Source: Gemmatimonadota bacterium
GTDB taxonomy: Bacteria; JAAXHH01
Assembly (NCBI GenBank): GCA_009835325.1
Contig: VXWP01000117.1
Location: forward strand, 33,111 to 97,110
Length of the DNA stretch: 64,000 nucleotides
Direction: 5' to 3'
Positions 1,955-35,680 of the stretch are shown here, in pieces. Made by a program: the position numbers and the translations under genes. Every line of letters starts with the position of its first letter. The first letter of the stretch is position 1. A model generated the notes under the pieces. The model was not told the origin of the DNA. It did not search any database and saw only the letters and a list, made by a program, of their open reading frames with translations.

Positions 1955-2060
1955 CAAGACATTCCCTGGGTCCCTGTAACATTATACCTCTCGCATTAGT
2001 CTAATGTTTAAGAATCGCAGCAAACCATTTCGATTCTAAACATCTCGATTGGAGGAGGTT

Positions 2061-3035
2061 ATGAGCCGGACTGGAGTTGTCGCGGTATTATGTGCGTGCG
2101 TTTGGATTTCAAGCGCGTGCAACACCCGGGAGTTCGGATTCGAGCGCGACGGGCAGATGAACGGTATTAAGCGTGATGGGCAGGACTATACCGAGACCTT
2201 TCGGCAGAATTACGAGGTCAACCCCGGGGGTACACTGACGGTCGATGCCGAATTGGGGGCAATTCACATTAAAAGCTCAATCCTAAATGAAGTAGATGTC
2301 CTGGTGAGAAAGCGATATCGGGCAACCGATGCAGGCCAGATTCGAAAAGCATTCAGTAATGTCGAAGTCGGAATTGAACAGACGGATAACGATGTACGAA
2401 TCGATGTCGACCGAATCGACGACAACGCAGAGAATTGGTTTTGGCAGGAAAAAACCCGCGTGGAAATCGAAGTAACGGTTCCCGTGGAATTCAATCTGGA
2501 CCTCAGTACGATTAGTGACAGTATCGAGACTGGAAACATCAAAGGAGACGTGACGGCCGAAACGCTTTCCGGGATCGTTTCGACCGGTCCAACCGAAGGT
2601 AATTTGAGCATAGAAACGACCAGCGGGCATATCAGAGCCGGTCGCGTAGTAGGCAGGGTACATACCAAAACACTGAGTGGGAGCATCGAAATTGGACCGG
2701 TGAATGGTAACGCGACACTCTCTTCAACCTCTGGCAGAATCGAAACAGATATCGTAAAGGGAGATCTGAACGCCGAATCCTTAAGTGGGCACATCAAGAT
2801 CGGACCCGTGAATCGTGACGCGACGCTCTCTTCCACCTCAGGCAGAATTGAATCTGATACCGTTAAGGGAGATCTGAACGCTGAGACCTTAAGTGGTAAC
2901 ATCAGGATTGGACCTGTGAATGGTGACGCGACGGTCTCTTCGACCTCGGGGAATATAAAAACTGGCCATGTGGGGGGAAAATTGGAAACCTCGACCCTCA
3001 GCGGCAAAATCGAAAGTAGTTTCCATACACGGTAA
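2061..3035 (+). CDS. secreted DUF4097-like beta-solenoid repeat protein (putative adhesin family), paralog A
   Basis: GGAGGAGG SD 2 nt upstream of ATG 2061 (the track ORF starts at an upstream TTG). Signal peptide present. ~20-aa repeats (SGxIxIGPVNGxATLSSTSGRIE) typical of DUF4097/YvlB-LiaG-like proteins. Markedly lower GC than its neighbours. Confidence 0.8.
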   Translation: MSRTGVVAVLCACVWISSACNTREFGFERDGQMNGIKRDGQDYTETFRQNYEVNPGGTLTVDAELGAIHIKSSILNEVDVLVRKRYRATDAGQIRKAFSNVEVGIEQTDNDVRIDVDRIDDNAENWFWQEKTRVEIEVTVPVEFNLDLSTISDSIETGNIKGDVTAETLSGIVSTGPTEGNLSIETTSGHIRAGRVVGRVHTKTLSGSIEIGPVNGNATLSSTSGRIETDIVKGDLNAESLSGHIKIGPVNRDATLSSTSGRIESDTVKGDLNAETLSGNIRIGPVNGDATVSSTSGNIKTGHVGGKLETSTLSGKIESSFHTR

Positions 3036-3162
3036 CGCCGTGCCCGGCACGGTCGAAGGAAACCTCCAGCGGCGACGCAACTATTTCATCATTGCCGGAG
3101 TCTTAGTCGCAGAACCGAAAGCTCGATGAACTTTAACCTAACCACACCAGGAATAGGGTCCC

Positions 3163-3936
3163 ATGAATGCGTTTTGGAAACTGTCGGTCGCTTGCGTATG
3201 TATAGTGGTGAATTTGAATGCAGCCGCGCAGGATACACAGGAAACCGAGATGATGCGAACTAACCAGGGATTCGTGGAGAGCATCACGGCGGCGTACACC
3301 GTCGATCCCGGCGGCGAGCTGATTATCGATGCCGACTTCGGATCGGTTCGGATCGAGACCGCGACCACCGACAAGGTGGAAATCCTCGTGGAAAAGCAGC
3401 GGAAGGAAGGCACTGAAGACGAGGCCCGCCGCGCCTTCGAAGATGTGGAGGTAACCACGGAACAGCGGGGCAACGACGTGCACGTCCGTGTCGACCATTC
3501 GCGATGGTTGGGACGCAACGGCATGTCCATCGAGATGAAGGTCCAGGTGCCATATACCTACAATCTGGATATCGAGACTGCAGGAGGCAGCATAATAATC
3601 GCGGACCTGGACGGCGAGATCGGGGCGAAGACGGCGGGCGGAAGCATCCGGATCGGCGCCACGCAGGGGGACGTGAACGCCCGGACCCTGGGTGGAAGCA
3701 TCCGCATCGGCCCGACCGAAGGGGGCGTGTCCGCGAAGACCCTGGGCGGCAGTATAGATATAGGTGACGCTAAGGGTGACGTGTCTGCCCAGACGATGGG
3801 CGGGAGCATCCGCGTCGGACGCACCGAAGGTGACCTGACCGCCTACACCATGGGCGGAAACATCACCGTGGAATCCGCTACGGGCAAAGTGTCGGCCAAG
3901 ACCCTGGGCGGCAAAGTCAGGGTCGGTTCCACGTAA
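3163..3936 (+). CDS. secreted DUF4097-like beta-solenoid repeat protein, paralog B
   Basis: Signal peptide present. The N-terminal domain is homologous to paralogs A and C (YxVDPGGxLxIDADFGSIRIE). Repeated TxGGSIRIG units. Confidence 0.8.
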   Translation: MNAFWKLSVACVCIVVNLNAAAQDTQETEMMRTNQGFVESITAAYTVDPGGELIIDADFGSVRIETATTDKVEILVEKQRKEGTEDEARRAFEDVEVTTEQRGNDVHVRVDHSRWLGRNGMSIEMKVQVPYTYNLDIETAGGSIIIADLDGEIGAKTAGGSIRIGATQGDVNARTLGGSIRIGPTEGGVSAKTLGGSIDIGDAKGDVSAQTMGGSIRVGRTEGDLTAYTMGGNITVESATGKVSAKTLGGKVRVGST

Positions 3937-3986
3937 CAAGCCGCTGTCAACGGCAATACCGTTTGTTTTGACAATTGGGAGGAATG

Positions 3987-5321
3987 ATGCGTCTATTATT
4001 AAACCTGGTTGGTGTCGGTCTGCTCGTTGCCTCGGCATACGCATGCAGCGCACAGGAGGTCACGTTTATGCGCGACGGTATGGGTCACGTAGAAAGAACC
4101 CACCAGAAATACGCGGTGGATGGGGCCGGCACGTTGACCGTAGAGACCGACTTCGGATCGATCCGTGTCGAAAGCTGGTCCAACGACGAAGTGGACGTCG
4201 AGGTGGAAAAACGTCGGACGGGTATCAGCGAAGCCAGCGCCCGCGACGCCTTCGATGAAGTATCGGTGGATATTTCCCAACGGGAGAACGACGTCGACAT
4301 CCGGATAGAGCGCGATCGGAAATACGGGAACGAAGGAATATCGGTGGATGTACAGGTCAAGGTGCCGGAAACGTACAGCCTGGACCTCAAGACCTCGGGC
4401 GGCGACATCGATGTCGGAGACCTGCGGGGTGACGTGCTTGCCCGCACCTCGGGCGGCGATATCAACGTTGGCAACGTTACGGACGCCGTGATCCGGGTTC
4501 ACACGTCAGGTGGAGATGTGACCGTAAAGGGAGGTGCAAGGGAGACGAAGGTGTCCACCTCCGGCGGGGATATCGAGATTCGTGACGCACGGGGCGCGGT
4601 GGATGCGACCACCTCGGGCGGTGACGTCACGATCGGCGACGCGGCCGGCGAAGTGTCGGCCAAGACCTCGGGCGGCGACATCAAGATCGGCCGTACGGAC
4701 GGTGAAGTGACGGTGAGAACTTCCGGTGGCGATATCAAAATAGATCAAGCCGGGGGAAACACCGATGCGACTACCTCGGGCGGAGACATCAGGATAGGCC
4801 ATACCACGGGAGAAGTGAAAGCGAAGACTTCCGGCGGCGACATCACGATCGAGCGAGCCGATGGCGAGGTGGACGTGCATACCTCGGGTGGCGACGTCAC
4901 CATCGACAGCGCCGAAGGAAGATTGAAGGCGGGCACCTCGGGCGGCGATATCTCGATCGGCAATGCGACGGGCGGGGGCGTGACGGCGAAGACCTCGGGC
5001 GGCGACATCGAAGCCGGTTTAACGGCGACGGTAAGCGCGCTGGAGGAAGACTGGCTGTTGCAATCGTCCGGTGGGGAGTTGACCATCCGCATTCCCGAGG
5101 ATCTTCAAGCCTCGCTCGAAGCGGAGATCCAGATCGGTAGTTCCTGGTTCGGACGTGACAAGGAATATCGTATCGATTCGGATTTCAACCTGGACGAGCA
5201 GGACGATGGCGGTCGTAACGGTAAAACCGTAAGGGCCACCGGCGATATCAATGGCGGCGGACATCTCATCAGGCTCAAGACAAGCGATGGCGATATAAGG
5301 ATTCAGAAAGTGTCGTCCTGA
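3987..5321 (+). CDS. secreted DUF4097-like beta-solenoid repeat protein, paralog C (expanded repeat array)
   Basis: GGGAGG lies 5 nt before ATG 3987. Signal peptide present. About 15 consecutive TSGGDIxIG(x)A units, followed by a C-terminal domain. Confidence 0.8.
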   Translation: MRLLLNLVGVGLLVASAYACSAQEVTFMRDGMGHVERTHQKYAVDGAGTLTVETDFGSIRVESWSNDEVDVEVEKRRTGISEASARDAFDEVSVDISQRENDVDIRIERDRKYGNEGISVDVQVKVPETYSLDLKTSGGDIDVGDLRGDVLARTSGGDINVGNVTDAVIRVHTSGGDVTVKGGARETKVSTSGGDIEIRDARGAVDATTSGGDVTIGDAAGEVSAKTSGGDIKIGRTDGEVTVRTSGGDIKIDQAGGNTDATTSGGDIRIGHTTGEVKAKTSGGDITIERADGEVDVHTSGGDVTIDSAEGRLKAGTSGGDISIGNATGGGVTAKTSGGDIEAGLTATVSALEEDWLLQSSGGELTIRIPEDLQASLEAEIQIGSSWFGRDKEYRIDSDFNLDEQDDGGRNGKTVRATGDINGGGHLIRLKTSDGDIRIQKVSS

Positions 5322-10386: not shown

Positions 10387-11316
10387 ATGAAGACAACCCG
10401 GAATGAACGGTTTATTATGAATTTACAGAGACAAATTACCGTGGCTTTCGCGCTTTCGATCTGCCTGCTCCTCGCCGCGCACGGCGAAGCGGCGGCACAG
10501 GATCGGAGGGATTCCGGCTGGTACGTCTCAGGCGGACTCGGTGGTAATTTCGCATACGGCCTGGACCAGTCGGGCTCGAACACGGAGTCCACGTGTTATC
10601 CCACCAGCGCCTGCTTCGATATGATTCTGCGGGACATTCCCGGCTACCGGTGGCGTTACGACCCGTCCGCCGACCGGGGTATCGGTTTCGATGCGGCCGT
10701 CGGTCGGGTGTTCGACCGCACCCGTATCGAGGTCGCGTACGCGCATCGGAAAAACAAGGTCGATCAGGGCCCGCCCCTGGAGATAACTTACCTCGACGGC
10801 AGCTCGGCGGGCGCCAGTTCCTTCCTCGGTCTGGGACTTGTTCAGGCTACCAGCATGAATTTCTTTGAAGACCTCGTGACGAGAACTGTGACCCTGAATG
10901 CCTACTACGATCTTCCCTTCGGTCCGAGCAGGATCACGCCTTACGTGGGGGTGGGAACCGGCATTGCGTTCGTAGAACTGACCAGGATCTTCTTTTCAAT
11001 CGAATACAGCGATCCATCCGGAGAGGGAACGATCTACGATCCCCCGCTGTCCTTCTACAACAGCAAGCAGGATACCAGGTTATCCGATACGGTATTCGCG
11101 GGGCATGTGTACGCGGGCGCCGACTACGGCTTGAACGACCGTGCCGCAGTCGGCCTTAAAGCGGCCTATTCGAGGGTGGACGACGTCGAACACATCGGGA
11201 CGTACGAGTACCATCCCCACTTCGATACGGATCCTTCGCTTACAAACAAAAACACGTTCAGTGCCACGAACCACTGGTCCCTGACACTGAACGTGCGTTT
11301 CCTGTTTGGAAATTGA
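10387..11316 (+). CDS. outer-membrane beta-barrel protein (porin/OmpA-like fold), hypothetical
   Basis: Signal peptide ending AAAQ. Alternating amphipathic beta-strand pattern, rich in Tyr and Gly. An alternative in-frame ATG lies at 10417. Confidence 0.55.
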   Translation: MKTTRNERFIMNLQRQITVAFALSICLLLAAHGEAAAQDRRDSGWYVSGGLGGNFAYGLDQSGSNTESTCYPTSACFDMILRDIPGYRWRYDPSADRGIGFDAAVGRVFDRTRIEVAYAHRKNKVDQGPPLEITYLDGSSAGASSFLGLGLVQATSMNFFEDLVTRTVTLNAYYDLPFGPSRITPYVGVGTGIAFVELTRIFFSIEYSDPSGEGTIYDPPLSFYNSKQDTRLSDTVFAGHVYAGADYGLNDRAAVGLKAAYSRVDDVEHIGTYEYHPHFDTDPSLTNKNTFSATNHWSLTLNVRFLFGN

Positions 11317-11322: not shown

Positions 11323-12693
11323 TTATCCCGTGGAATCGACGAAGACCTGGTGCGCGCTGCGGTCCTTGCCGGCATCCTGCGCATGCTGGTATGACCGGTG
11401 CTCGGACGGCTTGCCGAGCGAGGTAAGGGCCAGCATTTTCTCCGCGGTCTTCGTGGCCACGTAGGGCCGCCGGATGTCCGTAGGGTTCGCCTGGATGTGC
11501 TGCTTCCACGCGCCCAAGTCCGTCTTGGCCTGGATCAGTCCCTTGATCATCCCCATGTCGTTCAACATGGCCACGTCGTCGGCAGGTCCGAGCATGATGG
11601 CGCCGGTGATCGTGGAACCGTCCCAGATCAGCTTCCGGTAGACCGGACGATTGGCGTTTATGACCTCGGTGACGTCGCCGTCGCCGGACCAGTCGCCGAA
11701 ACTGGCGCACTGCAGGCCGCACACGTCCAGGATGTTCATCAGCAGGCTGCCGGGATACTCCACGTCCTGGCCGGCCATGTTCGCGCCCGCGATCCGGCCG
11801 TGGTCGACGGCGGTGGGCTGAATGGCGTGCACCGCCTGGCTTCCGGTGGACAGGTCCGGTCCTTCGGCCACGTCACCCGCCGCATACACGTTGGCCACGT
11901 TGGACTGGCACCGGTTGTTGACCAGGACGCCCTGATTGGTCTCGATGCCCGATCCATCGAGAAAGCCGATATTGGCCTTGATCCCCGTGGCGACGATGAC
12001 CACGTCCGCCCGGGTGGACGAGCCATCGGAAAGCTCCAGGGTCTTCACGCCGTCGTGGCCGTGATCGATGGCCTGCACGCTCACGCCTGTGTGGACTTCG
12101 ACGCCCTGGGACTCGAGCCAGGAACCCACCAGGGAAGCGCCCTGGGCGTCCAGCATGCGAGGCAGCACCTGGTCTTCCAGTTCGATCACCTTCAGACGGG
12201 CGCCGCGCTTGTGCATCGCGTTGAGGATGATGAATCCGATGAACCCGGCCCCGATGAAGGCCACCTCGGCATCGCTTCCCAGGGCTGCCACGGTCTTTTC
12301 CGCGTCGGCCACGGTCCAGAGATTATGGACGCCGTCGCCGTCCGCGCCGGGTATGTTCAGCTTCTGAGCGGATGATCCCGTAGCGATCAGCAGGTTGTCG
12401 AAGGGCACCATGGATCCGTCGCTGAGCGTGAGCATGCTCGCGTGGGGATTCACCTCGGAGACGCTGACCCCGAAGCGGGTCTTCACCCCCAGCCTGCCGA
12501 AATAGTCGTCGTCCCCGGTATTAACCTGATCGACCGGGATGTTCCCCGAGATATAGTAGGGCAGGGCCATGCGGGAGTAGGCCGGTTCGTCGGAGATCAG
12601 GGTGATGGACGCGTCCGCGTCGTAACCGCGGATCGTTTCGATGGCATTCATCCCGCCCGGTCCGCCGCCTATAATCACGTGTTCTGTCGCCAT
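11323..12693 (-). CDS. FAD/NAD(P)-dependent pyridine-nucleotide-disulfide-family oxidoreductase (AorC-like electron-transfer subunit)
   Basis: Dinucleotide-binding motifs: an N-terminal GGGPGG and a second GAGFIG. Lies immediately downstream of two AOR genes on the same strand. Confidence 0.8.
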   Translation of the reverse strand: MATEHVIIGGGPGGMNAIETIRGYDADASITLISDEPAYSRMALPYYISGNIPVDQVNTGDDDYFGRLGVKTRFGVSVSEVNPHASMLTLSDGSMVPFDNLLIATGSSAQKLNIPGADGDGVHNLWTVADAEKTVAALGSDAEVAFIGAGFIGFIILNAMHKRGARLKVIELEDQVLPRMLDAQGASLVGSWLESQGVEVHTGVSVQAIDHGHDGVKTLELSDGSSTRADVVIVATGIKANIGFLDGSGIETNQGVLVNNRCQSNVANVYAAGDVAEGPDLSTGSQAVHAIQPTAVDHGRIAGANMAGQDVEYPGSLLMNILDVCGLQCASFGDWSGDGDVTEVINANRPVYRKLIWDGSTITGAIMLGPADDVAMLNDMGMIKGLIQAKTDLGAWKQHIQANPTDIRRPYVATKTAEKMLALTSLGKPSEHRSYQHAQDAGKDRSAHQVFVDSTG

Positions 12694-12774
12694 AATCCGC
12701 TCCTTCTAAAGAAAGTACCTGAAAACAAAGTACAGATCATCCGTGGTTTGGTGGTCATCCGTGTTCGGGTTTCG

Positions 12775-14604
12775 TCACGCGAGCCCCAGTTCCATCAGTT
12801 TTTCCCTGGTGGGCTGTCCGTCCGCCGTCCAGCCCCGGGCCGCGTAGTAGTCCGGCAGCATGGCGTCGAGATCGACGGTCACCCCCGCCGAAGGCCCTTC
12901 CTTGTGGGCTTCTTCCATCAGTCTTTTCGGCAACGTGTCATCGGCCGCGGTGAGACCGGCCTTCAGGTTCCACAGCCGTTCGATGTTCCAGATCCGTTCG
13001 CCGATATGCACGAAGTCGTCCATGGTGTATTCCACGCCGGTGGCCGCGGACAGCACGGGGATCAGGTCGTCCAGGGGCGCGCCCGCCGTGGTGAACATGC
13101 AGATGCCCGTGGCGTCATGTGCCGTGGTCCGGTTCTGCTCCTCGGCCACCCAGACCGACTTCCCGTCGGTACCGTGGGGATCGTACTCGCCGCTGGTTTC
13201 GATGCCGGGCGTCCAGGCCCTCAGGTGACAGGCACCGCGGTTGCAGGTGGCATAGGCCACGCCCATGCCCTGGAATCCCCGGGGATCATAGGCCGGGAAC
13301 TCCTGCCCCTTGACGCCCATGAAGTACTCCGGATGCTCGAACTTGTCGGTCATCCGCTTGGAGCCTTCGGCCAGTTCGTCGCCGAAGCCTTCCCGGAATC
13401 CCGTGGCTTCCGTCATGGCGACCAGGGCCTTGCCGTCTCCGAACCGTAGCGCCATGCCCGTCTGCTCATCGCTCAGCAGGCCCCGCTCGTACATTTCCAT
13501 GGCCGTGGCCAGCGTGGCGCCCATGGAAATGGGGTCCATGCCCAGGTCGTTGCACAGGTAGTTGGCCATGACGATGGCGTCCATGTCGTCCACGCCGCAG
13601 TCGGCCCCCAGCGACCAGAGGTTTTCGTACTCCGGTCCCTCGCCGGCGACCTTCCAGTTGCGGGGATGCATGTTGACCATGTACTTGTCGGCGTTGGGGG
13701 ACACCTGGGTCACGCGGCCGCAGGCGATGTTGCAGGCGAAGCAGGCCTTGTTGGCGATCAGCCAGTTATCCTTGATGCTCTCCCCGTTGATCGCCTCGGT
13801 GCCTTCGAACTGGCCGGCCGTGAAATTGCGCGTCGGCAGGCCGCCGAAGGTGTTGACCAGGTCGACCGTGGGCGCCGTGCCCAATTCCGTAAGTCCCTGC
13901 CGACCGGGACTCTCCGCCAGATGTTCGTGGTAGGACCAGATGGCGGACATGTAATCCCGGGGCCGTGCGACCCGCACGCCCTGGTTGCCCCGGACGGCGA
14001 TCGCCTTCAGGTTCTTGGAACCCATGACGGCACCGACGCCGGAACGGCCGGCCGCCCGGTGCTTGTCGTTGACGATGCACGCGAACCGCACCAGGTTCTC
14101 GCCTGCCGGTCCGATGCCGGCCACCCGTAACTCGGGCATGCCGGTCTCTTCTCGGATGGCGTCCTCGGTCTCCGAGACCACCTTGCCCCACACGCCGGCG
14201 GCGTCGCGGATCTCGACGCGGTCATCGTCGACGAGGAGGTAGCACGGACGGTCCGCACGGCCTTCCACGATCACCATGTCGTAGCCGGCGAACTTGAGCT
14301 CCGGGCCCCAGTGTCCGCCCGAATTGGACGTGGTGATTGCGCCGGTGAGCGGTCCCTTGGTGACCACCATGTAGCGGGCGCCGCAGGAGGCGTTGGTGCC
14401 CGTAAGCGGTCCGGTGGCCATGATCAGCTTGTTGTCGGGACCGAGGGCGTCGACCGAGGGATCCATCTCCTCGTAGAGGTACCGGGCGGCCAGTCCGCGG
14501 CCGCCGATGTATTCCTCGGCCCAGTCCAGTCTCAGGGGCTCTTTGGTCGCCTTGCCCCGCGACAGGTCCACCCGCAGGATATGGCCGGCCCACCCGTGTG
14601 TCAT
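12775..14604 (-). CDS. tungsten-containing aldehyde:ferredoxin oxidoreductase catalytic subunit (AOR family), copy 2
   Basis: 609 aa, full-length AOR family (N-terminal MTHGWAGHILRVDL..., conserved AOR domains). About 70% identical in the N-terminal region to the upstream copy. Confidence 0.9.
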   Translation of the reverse strand: MTHGWAGHILRVDLSRGKATKEPLRLDWAEEYIGGRGLAARYLYEEMDPSVDALGPDNKLIMATGPLTGTNASCGARYMVVTKGPLTGAITTSNSGGHWGPELKFAGYDMVIVEGRADRPCYLLVDDDRVEIRDAAGVWGKVVSETEDAIREETGMPELRVAGIGPAGENLVRFACIVNDKHRAAGRSGVGAVMGSKNLKAIAVRGNQGVRVARPRDYMSAIWSYHEHLAESPGRQGLTELGTAPTVDLVNTFGGLPTRNFTAGQFEGTEAINGESIKDNWLIANKACFACNIACGRVTQVSPNADKYMVNMHPRNWKVAGEGPEYENLWSLGADCGVDDMDAIVMANYLCNDLGMDPISMGATLATAMEMYERGLLSDEQTGMALRFGDGKALVAMTEATGFREGFGDELAEGSKRMTDKFEHPEYFMGVKGQEFPAYDPRGFQGMGVAYATCNRGACHLRAWTPGIETSGEYDPHGTDGKSVWVAEEQNRTTAHDATGICMFTTAGAPLDDLIPVLSAATGVEYTMDDFVHIGERIWNIERLWNLKAGLTAADDTLPKRLMEEAHKEGPSAGVTVDLDAMLPDYYAARGWTADGQPTREKLMELGLA

Positions 14605-14714
14605 GAAGAAACTCCATTCCTCGGCTCAGGCCGGGTGATGCGGGGCCGCGCCCCGGTCACCTGACCCGGGAGCACGCCCTGCGGATCACCCTGGTTCAAA
14701 AGCCGGATCGGGCG

Positions 14715-16562
14715 CTACGCCAGTCCCAGCGACGCCAGTTTCTCCTGAGTGGGTTCGCCTTCCGCGTTCCAGCCGCGGATTTCGTAGTATTCCGGCAGCA
14801 TCTCGCCGAGTCGGTTCACTTCGCCCTTGGTCGGCCCGTCGGGGATCGGCTCTTCGAGCAGCCGCTTCGGCAGCGTGTCGTCCTTGCCCGTGAAGCCCGC
14901 CCGCTGGTTCCACATGCGCTCGATGTTCCAGACGCGCTCCCCGACCTCAAGCAGTTCGGGCACCGTGTAGGAGATGCCGGTCACCGCCTCGAGCTGGGGC
15001 TGTATCTCATCCAGGCCCACGCCGAAGGTGAGGAACAGGCAGAGGCCCGACGCGTCCACCGTGCAAGTGGCGTCCTGGAAGATCTTGGTGATCTCCGCCT
15101 TGCCTTCCGTCACGGCCGGATCCATCTTCTCCGGGATCCCCAGGATCTCGGGGGCGACCGTGTAGCTCTTCAGGTGGCAGGCGCCCCGGTTCGAGGTCGC
15201 GTAGCCCAGGCCCATGCCCTGGATCGCCCGGGCGTCGTAGGCCGGGAATTCCTGGCCGCGCACGCCCATGAAGAACTCGGGCCGGTTGAACTTGGCGGTC
15301 ATGCGCTTGGAGCCCTCGGCCAGTTCATCGCCGAAGCCTTCGCGGTAGGCCGCCTTTTCCGTCATGGCGACGAGCGCATCACCGCTCCCGAAGTTCAGCG
15401 GCATGCCGGTCTGCTCATCGCTCACGGCGCCGCTTTCGTACAGCTCCATGGCCGCGGCCAGCGTCGCCCCGAAGGAGATCGGGTCCATGCCCAGTTCGTT
15501 GCACATGGCGTTCGCCTTGATGAGCGCGTCCAGGTCGTTGATGCCGCAGTCGGCGCCCATGGCCCAGGCGTTCTCGTACTCCGGTCCTTCCACCGCGATC
15601 TTCCAGTTGTGGGGCCGGGTGGTCACGGTGAACTTGTCCTGCGCCTCGCCCGGCAGCTGAGACACCCTGCCGCAGGCGATCGTGCAGCCGAAGCAGGCCT
15701 TGTTGGCCACCAGCCGCGTATCGGCCAGGGTCTCCCCGCTGATGTTGTCCGCGCCTTCGAGCTGCGAGACCTGGTGGTTGTTCGTCGGCAGTGCGCCGCT
15801 CTCGTTGATGATGTTGACCAGCACCGCGGTGCCGTATGCGGCCAGACCCTCACCCGTTACCGGATGCTCGACCAGCTTGCTCTTCATCTCCCACATGGCC
15901 GACATGAACTTCTGCGGGTCGGCGATGGGCACGCCCCCGGTACCGCGTACGGCAATGGCTTTGAGGTTCTTTGAACCCATGACCGCGCCGACGCCGGATC
16001 GTCCGGCGGCCCGGTGCCGGTCATTGACTATGGCGGCGAAACGCACGAGGTTCTCGCCCGCCGGACCAATACAGGTAACGACTGTATCGTGCTGCCCCGA
16101 CTCCTCCCGGACGATATCATCCGTCTCCCAAACCGTCTTGCCCCACAGGTGCTCGGCGGAGCAGATCCGGACATCGTTGTCGCAGATGGAGATGTAGGAC
16201 GGAACCGGCGCCCGGCCTTCCACGATCAGCATGTCGTACCCGGCGAACTTCAGTTCCGGTCCCCAGTGGCCGCCCGAGTTGGACGTGGTGATGGCGTTGG
16301 TCAGCGCCCCCTTGGTGACCACCATGTAGCGTGAACTCGTCGAGGCGTTCGTGCCGGTCATGGGACCGGTCGCGAAAATCATCTTGTTGTCCGGGCCCAG
16401 CGCGTCCGCCGCCGGGTCCATTTCTTCATAGAGGTACCTGGCCGCGAGGCCGCGCCCGCCCACGAAGGACTTGGCCCAGTCCATGTTGAGGGGCTCTTTG
16501 GAGATCCGACCGGTGGTCAGATCGATGCGCAGGATCGTGCCTGTCCATCCGCCGTTGCTCAT
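14715..16562 (-). CDS. tungsten-containing aldehyde:ferredoxin oxidoreductase catalytic subunit (AOR family), copy 1
   Basis: True start is the internal ATG at 16562 (MSNGGWTGTILRIDL). The 726-aa track ORF is read-through. The start overlaps the ferredoxin stop as ATGA. Confidence 0.9.
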   Translation of the reverse strand: MSNGGWTGTILRIDLTTGRISKEPLNMDWAKSFVGGRGLAARYLYEEMDPAADALGPDNKMIFATGPMTGTNASTSSRYMVVTKGALTNAITTSNSGGHWGPELKFAGYDMLIVEGRAPVPSYISICDNDVRICSAEHLWGKTVWETDDIVREESGQHDTVVTCIGPAGENLVRFAAIVNDRHRAAGRSGVGAVMGSKNLKAIAVRGTGGVPIADPQKFMSAMWEMKSKLVEHPVTGEGLAAYGTAVLVNIINESGALPTNNHQVSQLEGADNISGETLADTRLVANKACFGCTIACGRVSQLPGEAQDKFTVTTRPHNWKIAVEGPEYENAWAMGADCGINDLDALIKANAMCNELGMDPISFGATLAAAMELYESGAVSDEQTGMPLNFGSGDALVAMTEKAAYREGFGDELAEGSKRMTAKFNRPEFFMGVRGQEFPAYDARAIQGMGLGYATSNRGACHLKSYTVAPEILGIPEKMDPAVTEGKAEITKIFQDATCTVDASGLCLFLTFGVGLDEIQPQLEAVTGISYTVPELLEVGERVWNIERMWNQRAGFTGKDDTLPKRLLEEPIPDGPTKGEVNRLGEMLPEYYEIRGWNAEGEPTQEKLASLGLA

Positions 16563-17050
16563 GCCGCGTTCCCTCCCTCGATGGATGTCAGGTAGGACTC
16601 GTTTACCTTCTCGGCCCATCCGCCCAGCCAGTCGGCCGACTCGCTCTCGGTGTATTCGATGGCGCCTGTCGGGCAGGCGACCGCGCAGGCCGGATTGCCG
16701 TCGCACAGATCGCACTTGAAGGCCTTCTGCGTGTCGGGATTGTAGAACACCGTGCCGAAGGGACAGGCGATGGTGCACAACCCGCAACCTACGCAGTTGG
16801 CATCGCCCACGACCTTGGCGCCGGTATCCGCGTCGATGCTGATGGCGTTCACGGGGCAAGCCGTCATGCACCAGGCTTCGTCGCACTGGAAACACGTGTA
16901 CGGCGCGTAACTGGCCTGCTCATCGAAAATGTTCACGCGGATCAGCGACCGGGATGGTTGAAACATGCCGGTCTGCACCCAGGAACATGCCAGTTCGCAC
17001 TGCATGCACCCGGTGCATTTTTCAGGGATTATGCGTAGAGATTTAGCCAT
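16559..17050 (-). CDS. ferredoxin-like electron-transfer subunit with four [4Fe-4S]-binding Cys motifs (AorA-like)
   Basis: Four CxxCxx(xx)CxxxC(P) motifs. The start was moved to ATG 17050 (MAKSLRIIPEKCTGC), which has AAGGGAG 6 nt upstream. Confidence 0.85.
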   Translation of the reverse strand: MAKSLRIIPEKCTGCMQCELACSWVQTGMFQPSRSLIRVNIFDEQASYAPYTCFQCDEAWCMTACPVNAISIDADTGAKVVGDANCVGCGLCTIACPFGTVFYNPDTQKAFKCDLCDGNPACAVACPTGAIEYTESESADWLGGWAEKVNESYLTSIEGGNAA

Positions 17051-17318
17051 ACCGACTCCCTTCTGTAACGATGAGCTGGGTTTGGAGGCGTTTCTTTCTG
17101 TAGACTTGAACAACGGTAAAAACAGCGTATATGACAGGCCACTCACGTCCGGTTTCAAGGGCCGTCATCGCGAAGGACAACGATGTATTACGTAAGGTGA
17201 TTACCTAATACTGCTTGGGGTTATTTATCAGTATAACAACTTAAAACAGAATGGCAACAGTTAAATCTGCGGTTCTGCGGGAAAGAGTCACGACGGATCG
17301 GGCTTAGGTACGGATGAT

Positions 17319-17400
17319 AGGGCCTGGCCGCGACCGACCGGGCCTGGCCACGGCTGACCTGGCCTGGCCGGCTTGCCTGTGCATCGACCCGGCCTGTTTG
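17319..17400. repeat. phased GGCCTGGCC repeats (three copies exactly 20 bp apart plus a degenerate fourth) between the GYD gene and the AOR operon
   Basis: gggcctggccgcgaccgacc / gggcctggccacggctgacc / tggcctggccggcttgcc ... cggcctg. Read directly. Confidence 0.7.
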
Positions 17401-17401
17401 C

Positions 17402-17722
17402 TTACGCTCCGGGCAACCGGTAGGTCACGCTCTTTCCCACCGCTTCGTCGATCGTCTCGGGTGAGATCAGCACCGTCGTGGATACTTCGAGCGCCCCCGC
17501 CGCGGCCACGTTGAGGGCAATCGCGGTCGCGGTCGCTTCATCGGGGATTTCGGCGATCAGTATGAGATCGTCGTCTCCCATGGCGTAATAGAATCCTTCC
17601 AGGCTGCCGCCCATCCCTTCGATCGTCTGCGAAAGGGCCGCGCGCCGGCCAGTACCACCCTCCCTGATCAGTCCCTGCAGGCCCGCTTGCGTGTACTTGG
17701 TTCGGTACATGTACTTCGCCAT
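17402..17722 (-). CDS. GYD domain-containing protein
   Basis: A ~105-aa protein MAKYMYRTKYTQAG...GFYYAMGDDDLILIAE matching the GYD family. GGAGG SD before ATG 17722. The 174-aa track ORF is an N-terminal over-extension. Confidence 0.75.
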   Translation of the reverse strand: MAKYMYRTKYTQAGLQGLIREGGTGRRAALSQTIEGMGGSLEGFYYAMGDDDLILIAEIPDEATATAIALNVAAAGALEVSTTVLISPETIDEAVGKSVTYRLPGA

Positions 17723-18055: not shown

Positions 18056-18916
18056 ATGACCGCAACAACTACCCGCCGGACCGGGGAGATGCACGATGCC
18101 AATCGCCGATCCTGGGACTACAACGAGATGCACGATGCCAATCGCCGATCCTGGGACTACAACGCCGGGTCCTGGGCCGAAATGCGGGACCGGGACGGTC
18201 TGTGGCGCCTCTGCCCGGAGGAACCCGAACTGGGATTTTCGGGCGGTGCGTACGAGTTGATCGGATCCCTTGCCGGAAGCATGGAAGGAAAAGAAGTCGC
18301 CGTCATCGGCAGCGGGGACAATTACGCCGTTTTCGCCCTCTCTGGCATGAAGGCAAAGGTCACTTCCATCGACATCTCCGAGCGCCAGTTGGAGATCGCT
18401 TCCGCACGGGCGGATCAGCTGGGTCTGGCGATCGACTTCGTACGGGCGGACGCGACGGATCTCCACGCGATGGCGGACCGTTCGTTCGACCTGGTCTGCT
18501 CGACCAACGGGTTCTTCGTCTGGATCGCGGATCTCCGCGCAGTTTACGAGGAGGTCTTTCGCATACTGAATCCGGGCGGGTACTACGTCTTCTACGATGT
18601 GCATCCGTTCCAGAGACCGTGGGCAGATCGGACCATGCCCATCGAAATCGAAAAGCCCTACTGGCAAACCGGACCGTTTCGGGACGAGAAAGAGGGCACG
18701 TTCGAATTCAACTGGACGATGGCCGACTTGCTGAATCCGGGGGCCGATGCCGGCCTGGTCCTCCGGCGTATCCTGGAACGTCCCGCGGAGGATTCGAATA
18801 CCTGGGAGGGGGCCTCCTATCGTCCGGGCAAAGACAAGCAGCTGGTGGACTGGAAGGTGAATCCCCGTGCGGCCCTGCCGTTCTGGCTTTCGGCGGCCTG
18901 GCAAAGGCCTGGATGA
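18056..18916 (+). CDS. class I SAM-dependent methyltransferase (paralog 1)
   Basis: SAM motif I VIGSGDNYAVFAL and post-I acidic residue. Paralogous to the gene at 20426..21247. Start uncertain (ATG 18056, 18089 or 18128). Confidence 0.8.
   Translation: MTATTTRRTGEMHDANRRSWDYNEMHDANRRSWDYNAGSWAEMRDRDGLWRLCPEEPELGFSGGAYELIGSLAGSMEGKEVAVIGSGDNYAVFALSGMKAKVTSIDISERQLEIASARADQLGLAIDFVRADATDLHAMADRSFDLVCSTNGFFVWIADLRAVYEEVFRILNPGGYYVFYDVHPFQRPWADRTMPIEIEKPYWQTGPFRDEKEGTFEFNWTMADLLNPGADAGLVLRRILERPAEDSNTWEGASYRPGKDKQLVDWKVNPRAALPFWLSAAWQRPG
18086..18163 (+). repeat. perfect 39-bp tandem duplication inside the methyltransferase 5' coding region (in-frame EMHDANRRSWDYN x2)
   Basis: gagatgcacgatgccaatcgccgatcctgggactacaac occurs twice consecutively. 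Confidence 0.9.
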
Positions 18917-18997: not shown

Positions 18998-19597
18998 ATG
19001 GACGTAAACACCGTCGCAACCTACCGAGGCAAGCCCGTTGGCCGCAGGATTCACGTCACCGGGAACAGTTGTTCCGGGAAATCCACCCTGGCGAACCAGC
19101 TGGCATCCGCGCTCGACGTCCCCCTGGTCGAATTGGACGCGCTTAACTGGCAGACCGGATGGGTCGGCCTGGCGGATACGGATCCCGGGGAACTTGACCG
19201 GCGTCTCGACGGCGCGACGGCCGGGGAAGAATGGGTCGTCTCCGGCTCCTACATGGCTTTCTCCCAGCGGGTATTCTGGCCGCGCGTGGAGACGGTCGTC
19301 TGGTTGGACCTGCCCGTGCACCGGCTGCTCTGGCGCGTGCTGGTCCGGTCGTGGAAGCGCTGGCGTTCGAAAGAGTTGCTCTGGGGCACCAATTACGAGC
19401 GATTCTGGCCCCAACTCAAAGTGTGGAACCGGGAGGACTCGCTGATCTGGTGGATCGTTACCCAGCAGGGCCGGAAACGCCGGCGCATGCAGGCCTGCAT
19501 CCAGGATCCCGCATGGCGGCACATCGCCTTTATACGACTCGGATCCAATGCGGAAATCGAAGCGTTCCTGCGTGTCGTGAATGGTATGCAACCGTAG
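18998..19597 (+). CDS. P-loop NTPase, adenylate-kinase-like / topology-modulation (FlaR-like) family
   Basis: Walker A GNSCSGKST near the N-terminus. Trp-rich C-terminal segment as in small AAA/kinase-like proteins. Confidence 0.65.
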   Translation: MDVNTVATYRGKPVGRRIHVTGNSCSGKSTLANQLASALDVPLVELDALNWQTGWVGLADTDPGELDRRLDGATAGEEWVVSGSYMAFSQRVFWPRVETVVWLDLPVHRLLWRVLVRSWKRWRSKELLWGTNYERFWPQLKVWNREDSLIWWIVTQQGRKRRRMQACIQDPAWRHIAFIRLGSNAEIEAFLRVVNGMQP

Positions 19598-19705: not shown

Positions 19706-20371
19706 TTGCGTCGTGGCGGTCAACCGGGGTCGAAACCCCTTGTCTATCGCTTCGTGTGCCACGCGGGCGGTCCGGTCGGCCGGGTCCACCTGGCCCGCCT
19801 GGTTCGCCTCGTCGGCGCCGTATGCGTGCTCTGCGCGGTCTACGCGGCGTTTATTCCCATGGCCGTCCTTTCCGTACCCGCCATTGCCGCACAGGAAGAA
19901 ACAGAGGATAACACCGTGTTCTGGTCGACCACACTGAAGATGATCCGTGCGAAGTTCCCAGGGGTCGCGCAGCTTTCCACCGACAGCCTGCAGACCTGGC
20001 TGGATGAATCCGGGCAGGCGCAGATGGGGCGTCCGCTGCTTCTGGACGTGCGGGAGAAGGAGGAATACGAGGTCAGCCACTTGAAAGAAGCCGTACTTGC
20101 CGCTTCTGAGAAGGAGGCGCTTGAGGTGCTTGAAGGCGTTCCTTCGGATCAGCCCGTCGTGCTCTACTGTTCCGTGGGCTACCGGTCGTCGGAGATGGCC
20201 GGCTTCCTGCAGAAGAGGGGATTCGATAGGGTCTACAACCTGGAAGGATCGATATTCGCTTGGGCCAATGAGGGGAAGCCCGTGTACCGCGGTGATGAGC
20301 GCGTGCGGGTTGTCCATCCCTATGACCGGGTGTGGGGCAAGCTGCTGAAGAAGGTGCTCAGGTCCTGGTGA
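19706..20371 (+). CDS. rhodanese-domain sulfurtransferase with N-terminal signal/anchor
   Basis: Active-site Cys loop LYCSVGYRS. Hydrophobic N-terminal segment. Probable TTG start at 19706 preceded by GAGAGGAG. Confidence 0.7.
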   Translation: MRRGGQPGSKPLVYRFVCHAGGPVGRVHLARLVRLVGAVCVLCAVYAAFIPMAVLSVPAIAAQEETEDNTVFWSTTLKMIRAKFPGVAQLSTDSLQTWLDESGQAQMGRPLLLDVREKEEYEVSHLKEAVLAASEKEALEVLEGVPSDQPVVLYCSVGYRSSEMAGFLQKRGFDRVYNLEGSIFAWANEGKPVYRGDERVRVVHPYDRVWGKLLKKVLRSW

Positions 20372-24172: not shown

Positions 24173-24841
24173 ATGCCACAGATTTTCTCCCCCGCCGCGA
24201 ACACGTGGCTCAAGGCGAGCATCGTCGGCGGGGCGCTTCTCCTGGCAACCACATTCGGCGTCATTTTCTACCTCGGTTCGACTTCCTATGTTACCCGGCA
24301 GCATCAGGTAAGACCCCAGCCCGTTCCTTTCAGCCACAGGCACCACGTCAATCAACTCGGCATCGACTGCCGGTACTGCCACGCATCGGTGGAAACGAGC
24401 GCCTTCGCGGGCCTGCCGGCGACCAAGACGTGCATGAGCTGCCACTCCCAGGTGTGGACCGACGCGCCTATGCTCGAACCGGTGCGGACCAGTTACGCGA
24501 CCGGGGAGTCGCTCGAATGGACCCGGGTGCACGATCTGCCGGACTACGTGTATTTCGATCATAGTATTCATATCAACAAAGGCATCGGCTGCGAGTCCTG
24601 CCACGGCGCCGTCAACGAGATGGCCCTGATGTGGCAGGAGGAATCGTTGCAGATGATGTGGTGCCTCGAGTGCCACCGCGGCCCCGAGGACTTCATCCGG
24701 GAACGGGCGGACGTGTACAAGTTCGAATCGCAGCCAGACTACTCGGCGCCCATGGACCAGAGCGCCCTCGGCGCGCAACTGATCCGGGGCTACCGGGTCA
24801 ACAAGGATCAGCTGGAAGACTGTTCCATCTGTCACCGGTAG
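24173..24841 (+). CDS. actA: Alternative Complex III subunit ActA (pentaheme cytochrome c)
   Basis: N-terminal TM anchor plus five CxxCH motifs (CRYCH, CMSCH, CESCH, CLECH, CSICH). First gene of the act cluster. Confidence 0.8.
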   Translation: MPQIFSPAANTWLKASIVGGALLLATTFGVIFYLGSTSYVTRQHQVRPQPVPFSHRHHVNQLGIDCRYCHASVETSAFAGLPATKTCMSCHSQVWTDAPMLEPVRTSYATGESLEWTRVHDLPDYVYFDHSIHINKGIGCESCHGAVNEMALMWQEESLQMMWCLECHRGPEDFIRERADVYKFESQPDYSAPMDQSALGAQLIRGYRVNKDQLEDCSICHR

Positions 24842-24865
24842 CAGGAACAGCCACGACATCAGATC

Positions 24866-27886
<3,021 letters not shown>

Positions 27887-27899
27887 GAGGAGTAGTTCC

Positions 27900-29294
27900 T
27901 TGTCGCAACAGGAACAGGCAGTCGACATAGAAAAGGTCGACAAGTACACGGGCGATGGTTTCGTAGCGCCCGAGTACGACAATACCACCGTCACGCAGAA
28001 GATATCCAACATCGTCCTGCGGGCGGATACGCCGTGGGGCTGGTACCTGGCCGTGGCGGTCCTGCTGCCCATCGTCGGCCTGCTGGGCGTCTCCATCACC
28101 TGGCTGGTGCTGATCGGTACGGGCGTCTGGGGCCTGAACGTGCCGGTCGGCTGGGGATTCGCCATCATCAACTTCGTCTGGTGGATCGGGATCGGACACG
28201 CCGGGACGCTCATCTCCGCCATCCTGCACCTCATGCGGCAGGACTGGCGCAACTCGATCAACCGGTTCGCCGAAGCCATGACGATCTTCGCCGTGATGTG
28301 CGCCGGCATGTTTCCGCTGCTCCACGTGGGCCGTCCCTGGCTGGCCTACTGGCTGCTTCCGCTGCCCAACACCATGTCGCTGTGGCCGCAGTGGCGCTCG
28401 CCGCTGGTCTGGGACGTCTTCGCCGTATCCACCTACTTCACCGTTTCCCTGATCTTCTGGTACATGGGCATGATCCCGGATCTCGGCACCCTGCGGGACC
28501 GGGCGAAGCATCCCGTCGTCGCGCGGATCTACGGCATATTCGCCATGGGCTGGCGCGGCGCGTCCTCCCACTGGGCCCGTTACGAGAAGGCCTACCTGAT
28601 CCTGGCCGGCCTGTCCACGCCCCTGGTCCTGTCCGTGCACTCCATCGTTTCGCTCGACTTCGCCGTCTCGCTGATCCCGGGCTGGCATACCACCGTGTTC
28701 CCGCCCTACTTCGTGGCCGGCGCCATCTACGCCGGATTCGCCATGGTGCTGACGCTGACCATCCCCGTGCGGCACTGGTTCGGCCTGCAGGGACTGATCA
28801 CGACGCGCCACCTGGAGAACATGGGCAAGGTGACCCTGGCGACGGGCTTCATCGTCGTATACGGATACGCCATGGAGGCCTTCATATCGTGGTACAGCGC
28901 GAGCCCGTACGAAGGGTTCATGATGTGGAACCGCATGACCGGCCAGTACGCGCCGGTTTACTGGGCGCTGATCTTCTGCAACGCCGTCAGCATCCAGATC
29001 CTCTGGTGGAAGCGCGCCCGCCGCAGCCCCCTCGTGCTGTTCATCGTCTCCCTGATCGTCGGCGTCGGCATGTGGCTGGAACGGTTCGTCATCGTCGTGA
29101 CCAGCCTGGCCAACGACTACATGCCTTCGTCGTGGGACTACTACGCGGGCACGATCTGGGACTGGAGCCTGTACATCGGCACCATCGGTTCCTTCCTGTT
29201 CATGATGTGCCTGTTCATCCGGTTCCTGCCCATGATCCCCATGTCCGAAATGAAGATGATCATACCGAAGCACCGGAATAAGAAGGACGCCTGA
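27900..29294 (+). CDS. actC: Alternative Complex III subunit ActC (NrfD/PsrC-like polytopic membrane subunit)
   Basis: Multi-TM NrfD-like protein immediately after actB. Confidence 0.85.
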
Positions 29295-29295
29295 G

Positions 29296-29844
29296 ATGAA
29301 TCACGGACCCGCCCGGCCCGAACTGCGCGGCCTCGTTGCCGAGTTTGAAAACGAGGAAGCCATCGTGGAAGCCACGCAGAAGACCGTGGACGCCGGGTAC
29401 CATCATATCGAGACCTACACGCCCTACCCCCTCGACGAGTTGCTGGACATCCAGCACCTCCACAAGAATAAAGTGGCGCTGGTGATCCTGATCGGCGGGC
29501 TGACCGGATGCGCCGTGGGTTTCTTCATGCAGTGGTTCGCCTCCGTGGTTCACTACCCGATCAACGTGGGCGGCCGGCCCCTGAACAGCTGGCCGGCCTT
29601 CATCCCGGTCATGTTCGAGTGCACGGTCCTGTTCGCTTCCTTTGCCGCGCTGATCGGCATGATGGTCATGAACAAGCTGCCCCGGCCGAACCATCCGCTT
29701 TTCGATATCGAGCGGTTCCGGTACGCCACGCAGGACCGGTTCTTCCTGTGCATCGAGGCGGAAGACCCGTACTTCGAAAAGGACGCGACCCGGCAGTTTC
29801 TGGAAGAGTTGAACCCGCACGAGGTGAACGAAGTTGAAGCGTAG
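29296..29844 (+). CDS. actD: Alternative Complex III subunit ActD (DUF3341-like)
   Basis: Position and size in the cluster. Two TM segments. Confidence 0.7.
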   Translation: MNHGPARPELRGLVAEFENEEAIVEATQKTVDAGYHHIETYTPYPLDELLDIQHLHKNKVALVILIGGLTGCAVGFFMQWFASVVHYPINVGGRPLNSWPAFIPVMFECTVLFASFAALIGMMVMNKLPRPNHPLFDIERFRYATQDRFFLCIEAEDPYFEKDATRQFLEELNPHEVNEVEA

Positions 29845-30436
29845 CCCCATGGCCCTCCTATACGCCGGTTTCCTGTGCGTCCTGTGCCTGGCCGCCGCGT
29901 CGGCCTGCCGGCAGGACATGCACGACCAGCCGCGCGCCGAGCCCTTCGAGGAGAGCGACTTCTTCGGTGACCGCCGGTCGGTGCGTCCCGCGGTGGAAGG
30001 GACCATTGCCCGGGGCCACCTGAGGCTGGACGAGCATTTCTATACGGGGAAGATCGACGGTGCGCTGGCGACGACGTTCCCCAGCACGGTTACCATTGAA
30101 ATGCTGAAGCGGGGGCAGGAACGGTACGACATCTACTGCGCACCGTGCCACAGCAAGACGGGCGACGGACTCGGCATGATCGTGCAGCGCGGCATGAAGC
30201 AGCCGGAGTCCTTTCACAGCCAGCGGCTCCTCGATGTGGAAGTGGGGCATTACTTCGACGTGGTGACCAACGGCTTCGGCAACATGTACAGTTACGAGGA
30301 ACGCATCGATCCGGCCGACCGATGGGCCATCGCTGCCTATATCCGGGCGCTGCAGATGAGCCAGGGCGCCAACCTGGCCGAACTGCCGGAATCCGATCAG
30401 CAAAGAATTCAACAAATCGTGGAAGTGGAAGAATGA
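29834..30436 (+). CDS. actE: Alternative Complex III subunit ActE (monoheme cytochrome c, lipoprotein-like signal)
   Basis: Single CAPCHS heme motif. Signal peptide with a Cys near the cleavage region. The stop overlaps the actF start (ATGA). Confidence 0.75.
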   Translation: MKRSPMALLYAGFLCVLCLAAASACRQDMHDQPRAEPFEESDFFGDRRSVRPAVEGTIARGHLRLDEHFYTGKIDGALATTFPSTVTIEMLKRGQERYDIYCAPCHSKTGDGLGMIVQRGMKQPESFHSQRLLDVEVGHYFDVVTNGFGNMYSYEERIDPADRWAIAAYIRALQMSQGANLAELPESDQQRIQQIVEVEE

Positions 30437-31644: not shown

Positions 31645-31668
31645 GAACGTGTATTATAAGAGGACGGC

Positions 31669-32109
31669 ATGAATCACGGCGAAAACCATAACACCGTTGA
31701 CCAGGCCTCGGTAGAACGGGGACACGAAGTATTCGAGACCAACGTGCCCCTGGTCATCAAGTTCGGCATCGGGCTGACGGCACTGGCCATCATCTCCATG
31801 GTACTGATGTGGCTGATGTTCGTGGTGATCGAAGACTACAACGCGATGACGTTCGACGCGCCGGCGCCTCTGATCGAAGCGGACGCGCTACCGCCCGAAC
31901 CGCGGCTCCAGGTCATCCCCGAGGAAGACCTGATTGCCCTCCAGGAGGCGGAAGCGAAGAAGCTGAATAATTACGGGTGGGTGATCCGCACGGCGGAAAT
32001 CGTCCAGATTCCCATCGAGCGGGCCATGCACCTGATCGCGACCGACGACCGGTACAGGCTGCCCTCGGCGGTGGATGCGGGGGTAGAACAGACCGGGGAA
32101 GGACCGTAG
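31669..32109 (+). CDS. small single-TM protein, possible ACIII subunit ActG
   Basis: AGAGGA SD. One TM helix. Lies between actF and sco1. The assignment rests on position only. Confidence 0.4.
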   Translation: MNHGENHNTVDQASVERGHEVFETNVPLVIKFGIGLTALAIISMVLMWLMFVVIEDYNAMTFDAPAPLIEADALPPEPRLQVIPEEDLIALQEAEAKKLNNYGWVIRTAEIVQIPIERAMHLIATDDRYRLPSAVDAGVEQTGEGP

Positions 32110-32110
32110 G

Positions 32111-33025: not shown

Positions 33026-33049
33026 CCGACATAACCGTAAAGTGAGCGT

Positions 33050-35667: not shown

Positions 35668-35680
35668 AAGGAGCACGATC

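Follow-up and report, generated by a model that had tools for sequence, protein, structure and literature searches.

Bacterial tungsten aldehyde oxidoreductases (AORs) of the AorABC type are studied as oxygen-tolerant tungsten biocatalysts for acid reduction and as model enzymatic nanowires. In the enzyme of Aromatoleum aromaticum (AOR_Aa), deletion of the C-terminal extension of the polyferredoxin AorA abolished filaments (PMC10413684). The Moorella enzyme (AOR_Mt) has an AorA without this extension and is predicted to be non-filamentous. An iron-sulfur nanowire is also formed, via a C-terminal helix, by (WorSL)3 (PMC12318220), and the filament of hydrogen-dependent CO2 reductase (HDCR) is a polyferredoxin nanowire with two different catalytic modules (PMC10413684). 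AOR_Aa is described with one catalytic subunit type per complex. Here we report on a stretch of 64,000 nucleotides from a Gemmatimonadota bacterium (contig VXWP01000117.1; the window, hereafter) in which, by contrast, two intact aorB genes for the catalytic subunit lie between aorA and aorC. From its sequence the locus is identified as an AorABC-type, NAD-linked ('type N' WOR) tungsten aldehyde oxidoreductase locus, and we favour, with some reserve, the reading that one AorA/AorC nanowire serves two different catalytic heads.

The two catalytic genes are called aorB1 and aorB2, and their products AOR-1 (B1) and AOR-2 (B2). The AorB of A. aromaticum is AorB_Aa, and L-numbers (L001 etc.) denote the loci compared with the window. 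The core of the locus comprises the following features.

16559-17050, minus strand: aorA, polyferredoxin subunit, 163 aa, with four [4Fe-4S] clusters and a C-terminal extension.
14715-16562, minus strand: aorB1, catalytic W-pterin subunit with the canonical type of pocket, 615 aa, AFOR_N and AFOR_C.
14605-14714, minus strand: spacer between aorB1 and aorB2, holding a GC-rich stem-loop and the ribosome-binding site of B2.
12775-14604, minus strand: aorB2, second catalytic W-pterin subunit, of a variant pocket type, 609 aa, AFOR_N and AFOR_C.
11323-12693, minus strand: aorC, FAD-containing, NAD-binding subunit, 456 aa, Pyr_redox_2 (E = 5e-50).

The gene order read on the minus strand in the original prediction (GYD, ferredoxin, AOR-1, AOR-2, FAD/NAD oxidoreductase) was confirmed by the gene coordinates and by Pfam, which places multiple 4Fe-4S dicluster domains in the ferredoxin and the AFOR_N and AFOR_C domains in both AORs. 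The predicted ATGA, in which the TGA stop of aorA overlaps the ATG of aorB1, is indeed present, and in 29/29 related loci with both genes whole the AorA match ends at the coordinate where the AOR-1 match begins. AOR-1 and AOR-2 are separated by 110 nt, AOR-2 and the FAD gene by 81 nt, with a ribosome-binding site in each spacer.

All subunits were compared with all solved structures, among them the cryo-EM structure of Aromatoleum AorABC (8C0Z) and WorABCSL (9MQX). The best solved relative of the ferredoxin was AorA of A. aromaticum (8c0z_C, 1.3e-54), followed by WorS of Acetomicrobium mobile (6.4e-31), and that of the flavoprotein was AorC (8c0z_E, 1.7e-77), followed by NADH oxidases (2.9e-38). 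Both AORs matched AorB (8c0z_A) and WorL (9mqx_D) at 1e-196 to 1e-223, the matches to AorB alone spanning 1e-196 (AOR-2) to 1e-219; AOR-1 scored 746 bits to WorL, its top solved match, and 731 bits to AorB. The AorABC-type module proposed earlier is thus supported, and the flanking ferredoxin and FAD protein have AorA and AorC as their best solved relatives rather than members of unrelated families.

The window AorA carries 16 cysteines in four CxxCxxCxxxC-type motifs, in line with the four [4Fe-4S] motifs counted previously. Its C-terminal segment ('ADWLG-GWAEKVNESY...') lines up with the region of the filament-forming helix in Aromatoleum AorA and is kept in related operons; the extension is of similar length to that of Aromatoleum AorA, has a conserved 'DW.G..WA.K.N' and may mediate polymerisation. 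In AorC, the residues corresponding to R41, M42, R179 and Q294 of the A. aromaticum protein, whose roles are described in PMC10413684, are conserved as read from the alignment. The AorC C-terminal tail is ~32-40 residues longer than in A. aromaticum, a feature conserved across related operons.

The residues of AorB_Aa assigned to the pterin (R75, G94, R181, D361, D504, I508, C509 and V510), to Mg (N92 and A182), to the FS0 cluster (C295, C298, C302 and C509) and to catalysis (E331, H464 and Y443) are known (PMC10413684). In a three-way alignment, R75, N92, G94, R181, A182, C295, C298, C302, E331, D361, Y443, H464, D504 and C509 are identical in both window copies, and the I508 and V510 positions show conservative hydrophobic changes only. 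Three subunit types that match 8C0Z, together with all cofactor residues in both copies, point to an AorABC-type (type N) locus. The ratio of non-synonymous to synonymous substitution rates (dN/dS), calculated for pairs with relatives at three distances, lies at 0.03-0.10 in each of the four aor genes (0.04-0.08 for aorB2), which shows that both AOR copies are maintained by selection. With pterin and Fe-S ligands in both and purifying selection on both, neither AOR copy is, as judged from its residues, a pseudo-paralog.

Two other assignments were rejected. The best NCBIfam hit of the FAD protein was to PadH (269 bits, cut-off 475) and that of the ferredoxin to PadI (100, cut-off 700), so that both fall far below the cut-offs, and no 2-oxoacid oxidoreductase (POR/KOR-type) genes lie nearby. 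PadI of the NADH-dependent phenylglyoxylate dehydrogenase (PadH/PadI: NF045765, NF045766) has 443 aa, of which only the N-terminal ferredoxin part aligns. A bifurcating WorABCSL system was discarded because the AORs are flanked by an AorC-type flavoprotein and unrelated genes and by no BfuABC (WorABC) genes, and because WorS is a poorer match than AorA.

The two catalytic subunits are 62% identical overall. Identity reaches 69.5% in residues 1-60 and 71.8% in the whole N-terminal domain, and is 54.7% in the C-terminal domain; the earlier figure of about 70% at the N-terminus was therefore correct. Outside this lineage the copies have different relatives. Those of AOR-1 at 72-75% identity come from Methylomirabilota, Binatia and Deltaproteobacteria/Thermodesulfobacteriota. 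AOR-2 has many relatives at 69-72%, the named ones mostly from Planctomycetes (Gemmataceae, Gemmatales and Planctomycetaceae), and its closest proteins outside its own lineage are those of Planctomycetes (70-72%). In a neighbour-joining tree the copies fall into separate clades, B1 with a bootstrap value of 99 and B2 with one of 100. A library of representatives at 50% identity, in which the whole bacterial AorB group is a single representative (P0241), was used for outgroups only. On this tree B1 and B2 are placed as members of two old, separately widespread AorB subclades, and the locus defines a large uncharacterised one, the B2 type, found mainly in Planctomycetes.

The two clades differ in the substrate pocket. 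Benzoate is held in AorB_Aa by Y468, F511 and F514 (PMC10413684). The B1 clade has Y/F/F at 468/511/514, as AorB_Aa does. In the B2 clade position 468 is W, 511 is F and 514 is small or aliphatic; the window B2 has W464/F504/A507, equivalent to Y468W and F514A relative to AorB_Aa. Throughout the B2 clade, 3 residues are deleted after 'HLRAWTP' and an 'EQNRTT' motif is present. This remodelled pocket makes it plausible that the substrate range of B2 differs from that of B1.

About 25 genome loci and 10 metagenome loci preserve ferredoxin, AOR-1, AOR-2 and flavoprotein in this order. Sponges are among their sources, as are ocean, lake and groundwater for the more distant relatives (L025, L027, L028 and L049-L053). 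The exact flavoprotein is also encoded on contig VXOL01000013.1 (assembly GCA_009840045.1), and several samples have it on metagenome contigs. The labels of related genomes are Gemmatimonadetes, Candidatus Latescibacterota or 'bacterium', and some are complete chromosomes of 3.7-3.9 Mb. A sponge origin of the window is suggested by its close relatives, which include complete chromosomes of metagenome-assembled genomes of the kind released with sponge genome notes. As the locus shows, aerobic, sponge-associated bacteria of the Latescibacterota-like kind have AORs of the tungsten type as a conserved trait.

In other phyla, B1-type genes lie in aorA-aorB-aorC-ThiS(MoaD-like) operons (L037/L038, L039, L044, L078 and L080). 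For B2-type genes elsewhere, AorA and/or AorC are adjacent in 23/29 contexts examined, mostly as aorA-B2-C-D, so that B2-type proteins are normally partners of AorA and AorC. A search for an AorA-binding signature, that is, columns fixed in operon B2 proteins and changed in stand-alone ones, returned 24 columns that track phylogeny and not context; at these columns the B2 copies of double operons side with either group.

A second double-AorB operon was found in L081 (149-6489), L084 and L125 (5609-11844). It consists of aorA, a B1-like AOR, a third-clade AOR, a ThiS gene or small open reading frame (ORF), aorC and ThiS, so that these loci carry one or two ThiS genes. The B1-like gene is 67-68% identical to B1 and has the Y/F/F pocket. 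The third-clade AOR, whose clade is represented by P0241, has an F/F/A pocket and 'GADH' for 'GACH'. As this operon belongs to an independent lineage, the design of a canonical plus a variant-pocket head with one wire and one NAD subunit recurs and arose at least twice.

We propose the following working model for the window locus. One promoter would drive aorA-aorB1-aorB2-aorC, and AorA would pair 1:1 with either B1 or B2 to give AB1 and AB2 protomers, which would assemble on AorC by means of the C-terminal extension of AorA. Whichever tungsten site oxidises the aldehyde, the electrons would pass through FS0, the AorA clusters and FAD to NAD+, and reverse electron flow would serve acid reduction. 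Two substrate specificities would in this way feed one iron-sulfur wire and one NAD+ site. For the model speak the position of B2 between aorB1 and aorC and the presence of A-B1-B2-C in ~35 related loci. So do the A/C-linked contexts of B2-type genes elsewhere, the purifying selection on all four genes and the second double-AorB operon. That both B subunits enter the complex, that it forms filaments and that the substrate ranges differ are steps that we infer.

Several observations weigh against the proposal. Its weakest links are the binding of B2 to AorA, which is a prediction from sequence, the need for a single aorA to supply two aorB genes when A and B are 1:1 in the complex known so far, and the repeated loss of B2. 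Translational coupling to aorA is confined to B1. P287 of AorB_Aa, reported to touch the AorC C-terminus, falls in a 7-residue insertion missing from both copies, and V290, reported to touch it too and lying beside the insertion, corresponds to V in B1 and to I in B2; with the insertion missing and the AorC tail different, the nucleation contacts of Aromatoleum would not be directly transferable. AOR-2 is gone from two genomes, with the B2-to-C spacer retained at the junction in L016 and the B1-to-B2 spacer in L030. These different spacers indicate two independent, clean deletions, by which B2 is dispensable. B2-type genes stand alone in 6/29 contexts (L034, L036, L041, L061, L071 and L072). 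Tungsten is the expected metal of both enzymes, a choice over molybdenum that is not readable from sequence, and no families of molybdenum cofactor (Moco) biosynthesis or tungstate transport were present among the window genes scanned.

These points bear on the rival explanations. The original prediction saw the pair as consistent with a tandem duplication, and a recent in-place duplication of aorB followed by divergence would fit two adjacent paralogs on the same strand with N-terminal domains 72% identical. We nevertheless regard it as very improbable: the copies share 62% of their residues, against 72-75% (B1) and 70-72% (B2) with proteins of other phyla, B2 is nearer to Planctomycete proteins than to its neighbour, B1 and B2 of the window are sisters in 0/100 bootstrap replicates, and the B2 pocket signature is present throughout the B2 clade. 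The window AorA shares 72-75% of its residues with the AorA proteins of B1-type operons and 67-69% with those of B2-type operons; the same comparison is less clear for AorC (52-58% versus 52-53%, respectively). A close outgroup, L042, whose B1 is 78% identical, has aorA-aorB1-aorC without B2 and without ThiS. The simplest history is a B1-type operon minus the adjacent aorD, into which a B2-type gene was then gained between aorB1 and aorC. Recruitment of B2 most likely took place in the ancestor of the lineage and not by recent duplication. No obvious compositional anomaly marks a horizontal-transfer island, the GC content at third codon positions of the aor genes (0.75-0.87) being inside the range of the other genes.

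The remaining rivals concern assembly. It is unlikely, in our judgement, that B2 is merely co-located, acting as a ferredoxin-dependent AOR on its own with B1 as the sole head of an AorAB1C complex. The stand-alone B2-type genes of other genomes, the overlap of aorA with B1 only and the loss of B2 without disturbance of A, B1 and C would suit such an enzyme; yet B2 sits between aorB1 and aorC in all ~35 loci, most B2-type contexts elsewhere are A/C-linked, and a variant head occupies the same internal position in the second, independent double-B operon. We give rather little credence to separate homotypic complexes, Aor(AB1)nC and Aor(AB2)nC, working as isoenzymes, perhaps in differing ratios or conditions. 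The B2 spacer, with its own ribosome-binding site and stem-loop, could set another expression level, and the sequence holds nothing that would force B1 and B2 to mix. Against this, no internal promoter or terminator is supported (the sole promoter-like match, at 14604-14576, lies inside the B2 start and fits 9/12 positions), and in A. aromaticum the AB protomers join via AorA-AorA contacts (PMC10413684), which would be blind to the attached B. Our preferred reading thus remains that of one wire with two heads. A more tentative extension of it is that B1 and B2 sit on the same filament, electrically connected and sharing one NAD+ exit, in a design that evolved at least twice independently. If true, electrons released from an aldehyde at one head could be used to reduce an acid at the other, and a single nanowire with two tungsten heads, an engineering goal proposed in the AorABC structure paper, would already exist in nature. 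The natural two-head operon offers a direct test of heterotypic filaments, and the AorB pairs would link pocket differences (Y468W, F514A and the 3-residue loop deletion) to substrate range.

The core genes are flanked by the following features.

17402-17722, minus strand: GYD-domain protein gene, 106 aa (Pfam PF08734, E = 2.5e-23), an upstream neighbour probably outside the operon.
17230-17257, minus strand: candidate sigma-70-like promoter of the aor operon, TTGCCA-16 nt-TATACT, with TG before the -10 element.
17051-17229, minus strand: putative 5' leader (~180 nt) in which two hairpins are conserved and a further helix may cover the ribosome-binding site.
11259-11276, minus strand: weak terminator-like hairpin, 47 nt past the aorC stop, from a consensus scan only.

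The promoter candidate matches 10/12 consensus positions, and both hexamers are invariant in 9 aligned relatives. More distant operons, whose leaders are unrelated, have comparable TTGACA/-10 pairs, picked out by eye, at 100-190 nt upstream of aorA. The alignment of the 9 relatives has conserved blocks in the leader, for which RNAalifold returned 24 pairs with 1 compensatory change, in sequences too alike for covariation. Rfam gave no match at the gathering threshold in the window and nothing meaningful at E<=10 in 16900-17450, and neither a tRNA nor an Rfam family was found anywhere in the window. A riboswitch in the leader was rejected, given no Rfam match, no Moco/Tuco riboswitch and a single compensatory pair. 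The B1-B2 stem-loop was likewise dropped as a special element: its fold of -56 kcal/mol is no more stable than shuffles (z only -1.6), and the spacer varies from 30 to 137 nt among relatives. Terminator-like sites in the region, by consensus scan, are no more numerous than in shuffled sequence.

The GYD gene had been counted as a component of the module. It lies 351 nt from aorA with the promoter-like site between, and the adjacency is limited to the close sponge-associated group; in L025, L027, L031 and L042 it is not upstream of aorA. Its dN/dS is ~0.06. We regard it as a clade-specific neighbour of unknown function that has its own transcription context and probably lies outside the operon. 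The segment from the GYD stop to the aor promoter holds, at 17320-17370, a GC-rich repeat of 20 nt in 2.5 copies ('GGGCCTGGCCGCGACCGACC'); a similar GC-rich stretch aligned only in L009 among nine relatives, so that the segment is variable. On the plus strand, positions 18086-18164 are a perfect tandem duplication of 39 nt (2.0 copies, 100% match), which yields a repeated 'EMHDANRRSWDYN'. It stands at the 5' end of a long reading frame, that of a SAM-methyltransferase gene diverging from GYD, whose database gene call starts downstream, and could be a very recent in-frame event or an assembly artefact.

The absence of an adjacent moaD/aorD-like gene, stated in the original prediction, was confirmed: tblastn with four AorD-like proteins found no ThiS/MoaD-like gene in the 64-kb window. 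The same search found AorD-like genes after aorC in L031, L035 and L037-L040, and none in L001-L030 or L045-L053. Most likely the usual adjacent aorD was lost or moved. Upstream of the GYD/aor region lie genes for a rhodanese-domain protein (19706-20371, plus strand) and a P-loop (kinase-like) protein (18998-19597, plus strand). Rhodanese or ThiF-rhodanese genes are also near the aor operons in L037 and L044, and one may speculate that they relate to sulfur transfer in pterin cofactor synthesis.

The caa3-type oxidase ascribed to the organism is encoded in the window at 33050-36376, with CoxII carrying a fused cytochrome c domain, CoxI and CoxIII. It is preceded by alternative complex III genes (24173-31644: a multihaem cytochrome c, a 1006-aa Fe-S subunit, an NrfD-like protein, ActD and a cytochrome c) and then by SCO1/SenC, the whole forming a plus-strand cluster at 24173-36376. 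Oxygen had been raised as a puzzle for a tungsten enzyme. The bacterial AorABC branch is, however, typical of aerobic or denitrifying mesophiles and unusually oxygen-tolerant, and AOR_Aa was fully active after 24 h of air in cell extracts (PMC6365974). As the branch occurs in such organisms, the caa3 oxidase is not in conflict with a tungsten AOR, and the puzzle falls away.

Some further observations concern the compared loci. In the metagenome contig L087 (2388-6061) both AORs of an A-B1-B2-C operon give split tblastn matches, that is, frame shifts, which are sequencing errors or decaying copies. A 541-aa ORF without a Pfam domain lies between aorB and aorC of a Planctomycete-type aorA-B2-C-D operon (L035, 10149-11774), and L056 and L065 have a gap of ~2 kb between aorB and aorC, as with the ORF inserted in L035. 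In the 5.4-Mb genome of L044, a second pair of ferredoxin (217 aa) and AOR-family protein (674 aa) genes (2081-4806) lies 3 kb upstream of the canonical aorABCD, so that each tungsten-enzyme module has its own ferredoxin. Elsewhere in the window are genes for a ferredoxin-thioredoxin-reductase catalytic-chain-like protein (PF02943; 23390-23794, minus strand) and a MerC-family mercury transport protein (48734-49123, plus strand). GC content is lower (0.54-0.55, versus ~0.62 for the window) at 2001-4000 and 36001-38000, and no long ORF occurs between 36376 and 37751.

The AOR/WOR literature searched, whose coverage is incomplete, yielded no description of two aorB genes in one operon or of an AOR in sponge Latescibacterota, and the main text of one genome-resolved study of sponge Latescibacterota contains none of the terms aldehyde, tungst- and molybd-. 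The chemistry itself is unsurprising: the AorABC family is known, and the two-headed layout is the new part.

Among the known systems, AorABC of A. aromaticum EbN1 (PDB 8C0Z; PMC6365974, PMC10413684) agrees with the window in its three subunit types and their order (aorA, aorB, aorC); it also has a four-cluster AorA with a C-terminal extension, the same W-pterin, Mg, FS0 and catalytic residues and the same AorC FAD/NAD residues, and both hosts are capable of aerobic respiration. It differs in that the window has two aorB genes of different subclades (57% and 53% identical to AorB_Aa), lacks aorD/aorE, has the 7-residue insertion in neither B and has a longer AorC tail. The closest relatives of each subunit are in the single-B operons of the form aorA-aorB-aorC-ThiS, of the B1 clade in Methylomirabilota, Binatia and others and of the B2 clade in Planctomycetes. 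The start-stop overlap of A and B and the long tail of AorC are common to them and the window, but they have one aorB and an adjacent MoaD/ThiS-like gene, whereas the window has one B per clade and no ThiS.

WorABCSL of Acetomicrobium mobile (PDB 9MQX; PMC12318220) contains the top solved match of B1 (WorL) and a homologue of AorA (WorS). Its electron exit is the bifurcating BfuABC; the window has no Bfu genes, and its FAD subunit is AorC-like. The Pyrococcus furiosus AOR (PDB 1AOR) has the same catalytic fold and the pocket aromatics of B1 (685 bits to B1, 620 to B2), but is a homodimer without AorA or AorC, ferredoxin-dependent and extremely oxygen-sensitive. HDCR differs in having two polyferredoxins (HycB3 and HycB4; HycB3 matches the window ferredoxin at 9.5e-17 only) and unrelated enzymes, a hydrogenase and a formate dehydrogenase. 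It is a functional analogy, and as such a precedent for a two-module nanowire.

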